Source of the DNA: a virus
Taxonomy: Duplodnaviria; Heunggongvirae; Uroviricota; Caudoviricetes
Virus record (IMG/VR): IMGVR_UViG_2879770953_000003
Direction: 5' to 3' (one strand)
Length of the DNA: 33,113 nucleotides
Part shown: in pieces, positions 1 through 3,000 of the stretch
How positions within the stretch are numbered: the stretch's first letter is position 1
Layout: each line of letters begins with the position of its first letter
Made by a program: the position numbers

Positions 1-3000
1 CTATGGGATAAACTTATTTTTACCAATTGTATAAGGCGGTGCATAAGATTCTCGGCATGCTTCCAGATAATCCGACCACCACTGCATCATCGCTTTGCGG
101 GCTTCCAGGTGCTCTGCCTTATGAATATAAGCCATGCGCACGGTATTGCGCTCCTGATGACTCATCTGGCGTTCTACTGCGTCCTTTGCCCATAAACCCG
201 ATTCCATCAGCGCACTGCATGCCATTGCCCGGAAGCCGTGACCGCAGATATCCTTTTTCGTGTCGTAACCCATCACCCGCAGTGCCTTATTGACCGTGTT
301 TTCACACATTGGCTTATACGGGTTATGGTCGCCGGGGAAGATCAGTTCATTATTACCGGTGATATCCTTAATCTGTTTCAGAATGGCGATGGACTGTTCT
401 GAGAGGGGGACGATATGCGGCATTCGCATTTTTGCCCCGCGGCCGGAATAACGCACGCCAATAATGGGTTCTCGCGTCGCGGGTATCGTCCAGACTCGGT
501 TTGTGAAATCAATCTCTGACCAGCGGGCGAAACGCAGTTCACTGGAGCGAATGAACACATGCAGCATCAGCAGAACGGCATGCCGGGTCAGTTCACTGCC
601 CTGATGATATGCCCCAATACGTTCAAGCAGTTCAGGCAGCCGCTCCAGCGGCAGGGCAGGATAGTGCCGTCTGACAGGAGGTGTGGTCACGCCGCCAAGG
701 TTTGCTGCAGGGTTCGTATCGATTAACTCCAGATGGACCGCATGGCGCATTATGTTACTCAGGTGCTGCCGTGTGCGGGACGCAACCTCCAGCAGACCTT
801 TTTCCTCGATCCCTTTCAGCAGGTCAATGAAATGACGGGGTTTAAGTTCTGATACAGGTAGGTTCCCGATGACCGGAAAGATGTGATTGTTCAGGCTGGC
901 AAGCAGACGGTCGGCGGTGTTCTGCGACCATTTCCTGTTACTTTTATGCCACGCCAGCGCCACGTTTTTAAAAACTTTCTCCGGTGTTCGTGAGCCACGT
1001 TCAGCAGCCCGCTGCTGTACCGGGTTGATATTCAGCGCCAGCATTTTACGGATACCTTCACGTTGCTGTCGCGCATCAGACAGGGAGATGGCTGGATAGG
1101 CACCCAGCGCAATGCGGGATTCTTTACCGCTAATACGGTATTTGAGATACCAGTGGCGGGAGCCACCCGGCTTGACCAGCAGATACAGACCGTGAGAATC
1201 GGAGACTTTAAAGGGTTTATCAGAAGGCTTGAGGGTGCGGATTTTTGCGTCGGTAAGGGATATATGGGGGTCACTCCATTATCGAACTAACCTGATCCCA
1301 GATTTGACCACCAATTTTTCCCGATGCGTAGGGTAAAATCAAAATGCACCGAGAAGAGTTTTCACACTAACCTGTTGAATCAACATCAGATAAAGATTCG
1401 CAAGGATGCATGAAAACAGAAAATTGGCTCCTCTGACTGGACTCGAACCAGTGACATACGGATTAACAGTCCGCCGTTCTACCGACTGAACTACAGAGGA
1501 ATCGTGAGAACGGGGCGCATATTACTTAGCGGTACCTTGTCTGTCAACACTAAATTTCATAAGCCATTTCAATTGGTTAATTAATCTGCAAAGTTGTTAA
1601 TTAATGAACATTCGTCGCCGAAAACGAGTCTGTATCATTAGCGTGATGCAGTCTCTGCAAAGGATCTTGTTGATAAAATTGACAGAAACGTTGCCACAAT
1701 GAAGGGAAACGAGGAGCAAAAAGTTCTGGGGCGCTAAAGAAATATTCAGAAAGTACGGCAAAACATTCAGCAGGATCACTGGCAGCATAAGCATCAATGC
1801 TCGCCGCATTCTCACCAACTAATTCGATTTCTTCCTGAATGTTGTTCATTGCAGCATGAAGATCGTGTTCCCAGCCAGCAACCTCACGCAACGAAATAAA
1901 GGGAACTCCGCTGGCGCGATCGCCGTTACGGGTGTCCAGCTTATGAGCGACTTCATGAATAATCAGGTTAAAACCAGAAGCATCAAAAGAATCTTGTATA
2001 TCCAACCAGTTCAAAACGATAGGCCCTTGCTGCCAGCTCTGACCTGACTGAACAATACGTTGGTTATGCACCAGACCGATATCGTCTTCCCATTCATCAT
2101 CGACCACAAATGGCGCAGGATAAATTAAGACTTCATGAAAACCATCCAGCCATTCCAGTCCTAACTCCAGAACGGGCAGGCAAAATAGAAGTGCTATCCG
2201 GCAGCTTCTTAATGAATTCAGCTCAAAGCCCTGTAAAGGAACAAGCCGTTTTTGCTGTAAAAAACGTTCGGCAAGAGCGACCAATTTGCTTTGTTCCTGT
2301 TCTGTCAGACACGTTAAAAGGGGGATCGATAGTGCTTCCTGCCAGGGAAGGGCAGTTTGATGTGCTGATTCTTGTACTTTCCAGGGCCACTTAATCATCG
2401 TTTTGCTCGCAAACTCGTCACTTGAACAAAATTGCACGGACAGGGACTGTTAAAATGCCAAATTTCCTGGCATCATGGCAACCATCTGAGCGGAGAGATG
2501 CCGGAGCGGCTGAACGGACCGGTCTCGAAAACCGGAGTGGGGGCAACTCCACCGGGGGTTCAAATCCCCCTCTCTCCGCCAAAATTCAATCACTTATACA
2601 TCATTAAGTCAGTGACAAAAATCACACTTGGAATTACTTGGAATATTTTCTTGGAATATTTTCAGGTAACGGGACATCAAGTGTCGGTGAAACTTTAACC
2701 TTCCTGTCATAGATTAGCACTTGCCCCTCGGTTTTGTGACCAGAGAAAAGTTGCTTATCCCGACTGCTTCCTTCATAGTCTGAAATTCCTTTCGCCTTCA
2801 GATCATGAAAGGTGAAGTCGGTTAAAATACCTGAAATTTTGCCTGCGCGATTTCTTGCTTCTACCCACATTTCGTTAAAGCCTTTGTACATATATCGGTT
2901 GCCGTATTGATTGCTGATTACATAGGCGGATGTTGGTAACTGTTTTGCTTTTTCGATCGCCGCCTGTAATCGTGGACTCCATGCTTTTATCTGTTTTTTT

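Follow-up and report, generated by a model that had tools for sequence, protein, structure and literature searches.

In the integrated yersiniabactin island (HPI), the tRNA-Asn promoter drives the integrase gene int (PMC8209727). For the homologous int of ICEKp1, transcripts likewise read through from that promoter, and stem-loops in the leader attenuate them (PMC13023037). The 17-bp att core of these elements, CCAGTCAGAGGAGCCAA, corresponds to the direct repeat given in PMC2801613. In the asnT HPIs of E. coli, the right direct repeat has been lost (PMC2606025, PMC8209727), and the second of these studies speaks of an 'immobile truncated form'. It is already known that the E. coli HPI is immobile and that integrases decay in fixed islands, and the ATA codon described below is a real but ordinary finding. 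Our literature search found no paper that mentions an ATA start of the HPI integrase gene.

Here we analyse an integrase gene at one end of a 33,113-nucleotide stretch of DNA (hereafter the window; IMG/VR record IMGVR_UViG_2879770953_000003), in which ATA occupies the ancestral ATG initiator position (1261..1263, minus strand). We consider that this is ordinary pseudogenisation and that ATA is one decay lesion in the HPI integrase of an asnT island that was already immobile, a reading to which we assign a probability of about 0.8.

Identity and setting of the integrase

The integrase reading frame lies on the minus strand (1..1263), where it comprises 420 codons followed by TAG (3..1) and is otherwise open. 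Translation bears out the initial annotation, made from the sequence alone, in that the frame is open from 1278 to this stop codon, and a TAA at 1281..1279 stands just before 1278. The frame reads WSDPH-I-SLTDAKIRTLKPSDKPF..., in which the Ile codon is the ATA at 1263..1261, ahead of SLTDAKIR. When the protein is read from the ATA position, Pfam finds Arm-DNA-bind_3/DUF4102 (PF13356) at residues 3-87 (E = 8.5e-24), Phage_int_M (PF22022) at residues 98-191 (E = 3e-24) and Phage_integrase (PF00589) at residues 222-384 (E = 5.6e-20). Residues 1-80 are identical to PDB 3jtz, the N-terminal domain of a 'CP4-like integrase' that starts with MSLTDAKIR. The catalytic residues of tyrosine integrases are arranged as R...K...H-x-x-R...H...Y, and we take FIRSSEL (237), GHGFR (341), SHQ (367) and MAYIH (376) to be the candidate catalytic motifs, their roles being placed by eye; a PDB search found no full-length homologue for mapping the catalytic residues of the integrase.

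The gene adjoins a tRNA-Asn (GTT) gene, asnT (1425..1500, minus), which is the island integration site as judged from the tRNA call and from relatives with the order serU-mtfA-asnT-int-ybtS. mtfA (1601..2437, minus) and the tRNA-Ser(CGA) gene serU (2492..2581) follow. The att core at the 3' end of asnT (1424..1440, minus) marks the left junction and is present as a single copy in the window. The window stops at the int stop codon, and the ybt/irp/fyuA cargo is placed from relatives; in those that are 99.1-99.6% identical over int and asnT, ybtS lies directly after the integrase. The adjacency to asnT and the presence of ybtS beyond the integrase in relatives identify the gene, previously described as a P4-type integrase of an asn-tRNA island, as the integrase of the yersiniabactin HPI. 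Judged from its sequence, the gene belongs to the HPI/ICEKp family of P4-type integrases by context, domains and near-identity, and it departs from this family in its lack of a canonical start alone.

The first in-frame ATG, GTG or TTG is the ATG at 1042..1044 (minus), which encodes Met74, and the ORF listing gives a 347-aa product from it, as had been noted. Since the Pfam arm domain covers residues 3-87 and PDB 3jtz covers residues 1-81, a start at 1044 drops most of the arm-binding domain, as the initial annotation had proposed. This domain is encoded only if translation begins at the ATA position, and the ORF listing of the frame has no canonical start that keeps it. In one alternative reading, translation starts at Met74 and yields an integrase devoid of arm binding with some residual function. 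The codon has a GAAGG 10 nt upstream of 1044, it is the first canonical in-frame start, and gene finders that accept canonical starts alone are expected to call the 347-aa ORF. However, this codon is an internal Met that the Raoultella and Klebsiella copies retain, as do 17 of the 19 E. coli copies in our sample, and it has itself become ATA (M74I) in two strains with the ATA allele, A0 34/86 and AVS0467. Lambda-type integrases require arm binding for productive recombination, and the Met74 product would be deprived of it. We therefore regard initiation at Met74 as highly improbable. The overlapping out-of-frame GTG ORF over the 5' end of the integrase (1032..1274, minus; 80 aa) is indeed present in the ORF listing; a Pfam search with it gave no match, and it is an incidental alternate-frame ORF.

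ATA is a derived allele shared by many E. coli genomes

Since a single specific codon is concerned, a test against chance expectation is inapplicable, and the comparison with relatives serves as the control. The codon at 1263..1261 aligns with ATG in every one of 79 loci from species other than E. coli, which include Raoultella, Klebsiella, Serratia, Pectobacterium and Citrobacter, have 70-100% protein identity and share the pattern M-S-L-[TNS]-D-x-K-I-R. The alignment that the initial annotation had recommended thus places ATA at the expected Met position. ATG is also found in the colibactin-island paralogue at asnW and in the ST131-type HPI allele of E. coli (JJ1886). The presence of ATG in other species, in the colibactin paralogue and in other E. 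coli alleles indicates that ATA is a derived state, a G>A transition in the initiator at window position 1261.

We counted the alleles in 5,426 complete E. coli genomes with 30- and 40-mers, for which the megablast word was forced across the codon; the ATG alleles were counted with 30-mers whose discriminating bases lie inside the 28-nt word, which avoids partial matches to the colibactin paralogue. The ATA allele, which includes UTI89 and CFT073, is present in 945 genomes, 931 by a shared 40-mer and 14 more with the leader variant of CFT073. ATG occurs with Ser5 (ST131 type) in 538 genomes, with Asp5 (ancestral-like) in 83 and with Phe2 in 409. The typed alleles total 1,975 of ~2,200-2,440 carriers, the remainder being local variants outside the tally.

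A sequencing or assembly error at 1261 would explain a single-base difference from the expected ATG. The 931 independent complete genomes that contain the same ATA 40-mer refute this explanation, as do the 14 with the leader of CFT073. Nor is ATA a peculiarity of this copy. An 81-nt query around the codon has a perfect match in 0 of 2,213 genomes, and the differing base is intergenic (1296), where the A of the window is shared by the deletion copies of the Phe2 family described below. We accordingly rejected the idea that ATA is a mutation private to the window copy.

In every inspected ATA copy, the RefSeq CDS is 420 aa long (1,263 nt) and starts exactly on ATA, which is an annotation decision and no evidence of function. 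The initial annotation had held that ATA in intact relatives would speak against a start-codon lesion. Relatives with ATA and full-length RefSeq CDSs do exist, but they do not show that ATA works, because they share both the allele and the fixed island.

The island lacks a partner att site in relatives

We searched 37-38 kb covering the whole island through shiA for the att core, with at most three mismatches, in two genomes, A0 34/86 (ATA allele) and JJ1886 (ATG allele). Across the whole island, the core is present in one copy in A0 34/86 and likewise in one copy in JJ1886, in agreement with the repeat loss described in the literature (PMC2606025, PMC8209727). Since the repeat is missing in islands with either allele, the island was already immobile. 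As both alleles are without the repeat and ATA is found in a subset of the islands, the simplest order of events is that the repeat was lost first and ATA arose later. The right end of the island lies beyond the window, and by comparison with these relatives the island of the window strain has probably lost its right repeat as well.

This observation bears on the earlier proposal that the start-codon lesion fixed the island in place. A single att core in both the ATA and the ATG genome does not support it, and causality is likely reversed. Because no partner att site appears to be left, ATA would have no further effect on the mobility of the island.

The integrase of E. coli changes at a rate compatible with neutrality

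For the selection analysis, we used 19 E. coli copies, representing 13 alleles, and let one Raoultella copy represent the ancestor. The 13 alleles show 26 non-synonymous and 5 synonymous distinct codon changes, a ratio compatible with neutral change, given that 76% of the sites are non-synonymous (p = 0.21). In contrast, the Klebsiella-Raoultella branch of the same gene shows a ratio of 7:17 (dN/dS ~0.13), and the difference from E. coli is significant (Fisher p = 7e-5). Radical changes among the E. coli alleles include L29R, L61Q, L121R, L149Q and L204P, and of these L61Q, L121R, L204P and L149Q occur in ATA alleles themselves. The window copy adds two missense changes, Q178L (CAG>CTG at 731, minus), found in 0 of 18 other sampled E. 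coli alleles and absent from the outgroups, and R223S (CGT>AGT at 597, minus), found in no other sampled allele. The sampled changes touch none of the catalytic-motif stretches placed by eye (around 239, 341-345, 369 and 379).

A different lesion is found in the Phe2 family, where a deletion removes 347 bp (gene nt 124-470) from three of six sampled copies, each of which carries the annotation of a frameshifted pseudogene. The internal deletion is identical in these copies, which come from E. coli 2014C-3050, elppa9 and TUM1586 and begin with ATG-TTC (S2F). The 420-codon frame is open in all nine sampled ATA genomes (six distinct alleles). An intact frame is also expected of a very young pseudogene, because each allele carries at most eight substitutions.

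When codon 1 (ATA or ATG) is compared with codon 29 (Leu or Arg; 1177-1179), all four combinations occur. ATA has thus either moved between backgrounds by recombination or arisen repeatedly. The first possibility fits the spread of the island by homologous recombination reported in PMC2606025.

The diversity of these lesions raises the question of whether loss of the integrase is adaptive, in which case ATA, the 347-bp deletion and the radical changes of Leu to Arg, Gln or Pro would be independent knock-downs under positive selection. An active enzyme without a partner site and under the strong asnT promoter could be harmful by rearranging the four neighbouring asn-tRNA att cores; alternatively, it could destabilise the neighbouring, repeat-flanked colibactin island or cause its loss. 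Several independent kinds of lesion do exist, and the point estimates of dN/dS exceed 1 (2.3 with 8 alleles and ~1.6 with 13 alleles, the latter from 26:5). The excess over the neutral expectation is, however, significant in neither sample (p = 0.12 and 0.21, respectively), and ~620 genomes keep the ATG allele with Ser5 or Asp5, whose frame is open in 8 of 8 sampled copies. The association with colibactin also favours the adaptive explanation, as by count arithmetic an ATG (Ser5/Asp5) HPI integrase is missing from ~258 of the 282 genomes that have a colibactin-type integrase, but this link is indirect, and phylogeny (B2 lineages) confounds it. We thus consider adaptive loss unlikely, and ordinary decay under relaxed selection remains our preferred reading.

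As to the colibactin island itself, a colibactin-type second integrase is present in ~282 E. coli genomes, 24 of which have an ATG (Ser5/Asp5) HPI integrase. From these indirect counts, uncorrected for phylogeny, the ATA allele seems to be over-represented among colibactin-positive lineages. In E. coli ECSC054, the annotation of the colibactin-island integrase (asnW) gives a pseudogene interrupted by an internal stop, which indicates that integrase decay is not confined to the HPI.

Leader sequence and expected translation from AUA

The 5' leader of int spans the stretch between the tRNA-Asn gene and the start position (1264..1424, minus) and has three predicted stem-loops, the last of which holds the Shine-Dalgarno sequence. 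The latter, GGAG (1274..1277, minus), is located 10 nt upstream of the ATA or ATG within the leader segment GTTCGATAATGGAGTGACCCCCAT (1264..1287), and nearly all of the 79 non-E. coli loci keep this motif. The three predicted hairpins resemble the stem-loops of the ICEKp1 leader, but the leader folds weakly better than shuffled sequence (z = -1.65), and we make no structural claim from it.

The part of the leader closest to the start, GTTCGAT-N3-GGAGTGACCCCCA(A/T)ATG (window 1264-1290), is near-invariant across genera, despite proteins that are ~70% identical. Such conservation, which exceeds that of the coding sequence, suggests a regulatory element at the RNA or DNA level. The conserved part overlaps the third predicted hairpin and may match the SL3 attenuator of ICEKp1 (PMC13023037). 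We also found a mini-ORF of two codons, ATG-GAG-TGA (1271-1279, minus), which runs out of frame across the Shine-Dalgarno sequence; relatives whose leader reads 'aatGGAG' have it, and those with 'gacGGAG' lack it.

Initiation at AUA in E. coli reaches 1-2% of the AUG level with sfGFP and 0.02-3% with NanoLuc (bioRxiv 10.1101/063800). Given these reporter values, ATA would lower the yield of full-length integrase roughly a hundredfold. With the Shine-Dalgarno sequence and the leader intact, some full-length integrase is probably still made from AUA.

The genes infC and pcnB have natural near-cognate AUU starts. By analogy with infC, ATA could be a functional weak start under selection, which keeps the integrase at a very low level for a role other than excision. 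The intact GGAG with its 10-nt spacing and the intact leader are consistent with this idea, as are the detectable initiation at AUA in E. coli, the open reading frame of every sampled ATA allele and the full-length RefSeq CDS of every inspected ATA copy. On the other hand, all 79 relatives from other species have ATG, including the copies nearest to this gene, and the second att site is absent in the relatives examined. Non-synonymous changes accumulate in E. coli at a neutral rate (26:5), and the ATA alleles themselves bear radical changes. The unusual start is therefore neither conserved among orthologues nor accompanied by purifying selection, and a selected weak start seems decidedly unlikely. 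These observations are in better agreement with ATA as a decay lesion.

The prophage beside serU

The region beyond serU (2600-27500 onward) is a prophage with matches to terminase, portal, major capsid, tail sheath and tape measure proteins, and four tRNA genes (Met, Lys, Thr and Gly) are clustered in it at 10301-10610. No complete E. coli genome has at least 80% of the prophage region in one place, and the best match, FDAARGOS_944, covers 73% of it at 99.8% identity. A 205-aa ORF (2634-3251, minus) adjoins tRNA-Ser(CGA) and encodes the catalytic domain of a tyrosine recombinase alone (PF00589, E = 2e-11). It looks like a second, truncated integrase, as far as its domain content tells. JJ1886 has a frameshifted integrase at the corresponding position.

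Discussion

In the course of events that we favour, the E. coli asnT island would have lost its right-hand att repeat earlier, leaving an integrase without an excision substrate and under relaxed selection. In the P4-type integrase of such an island, the ATG initiator would then have mutated to ATA by the G>A change at 1261. As in the homologous elements, read-through transcription that starts at the tRNA-Asn promoter probably still covers the gene, while translation of the full-length protein from AUA would fall to ~0.02-3% of the AUG level, as the reporters suggest. ATA would be one of several independent decay lesions, alongside many radical missense changes and the 347-bp deletion that shifts the frame, and it seems to have spread both clonally and by homologous recombination.

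The biological weight of this finding is little, since the decay of mobility genes after the fixation of an island is textbook knowledge and has been described for the yersiniabactin island of E. coli. Its consequences are more practical. Judged from the inspected copies, ~900 RefSeq genomes probably show an intact, ATA-initiated integrase, and a scoring of island 'mobility' by the presence of an 'intact integrase' would mislead. The start codon together with the Ser5 and Phe2 variants could serve as markers of HPI allele families.

Several known systems can be compared with the integrase of the window. In the near-cognate starts of infC and pcnB (AUU), as in the window integrase, an AUN initiator follows a normal Shine-Dalgarno sequence. 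However, the unusual start of infC and pcnB is conserved and regulatory, whereas the ATA of the window is derived, restricted to some E. coli alleles and found in a protein that changes at a neutral rate.

Closer in kind are two integrases that likewise belong to asn-tRNA islands and carry lesions, namely the truncated intB2 of the Enterobacter island EhGI1 (PMC2801613) and, in E. coli, the HPI int allele that has lost 347 bp. In each case, the lesion should abolish function or leave little of it, with the cargo genes intact. Unlike in these two, the start-codon substitution of the window leaves the ORF whole, and annotation pipelines can call a complete gene.

The closest counterparts are Int-HPI (intB) of the Yersinia and E. 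coli HPI and the integrases of ICEKp1 and ICEEc1, with which the integrase of the window shares the 17-bp att core and the three-domain architecture. The relatives share the gene order (serU-mtfA-asnT-int-ybtS), and the integrase copies of Raoultella and Klebsiella have 98-100% protein identity to the window integrase. The latter differs from Int-HPI and the ICEKp1 and ICEEc1 enzymes in its initiator, which is ATA rather than ATG, and in the additional changes Q178L and R223S. Furthermore, the island of the E. coli relatives has no second att repeat and hence no excision substrate, unlike ICEKp1, ICEEc1 and the HPI of Y. pseudotuberculosis.
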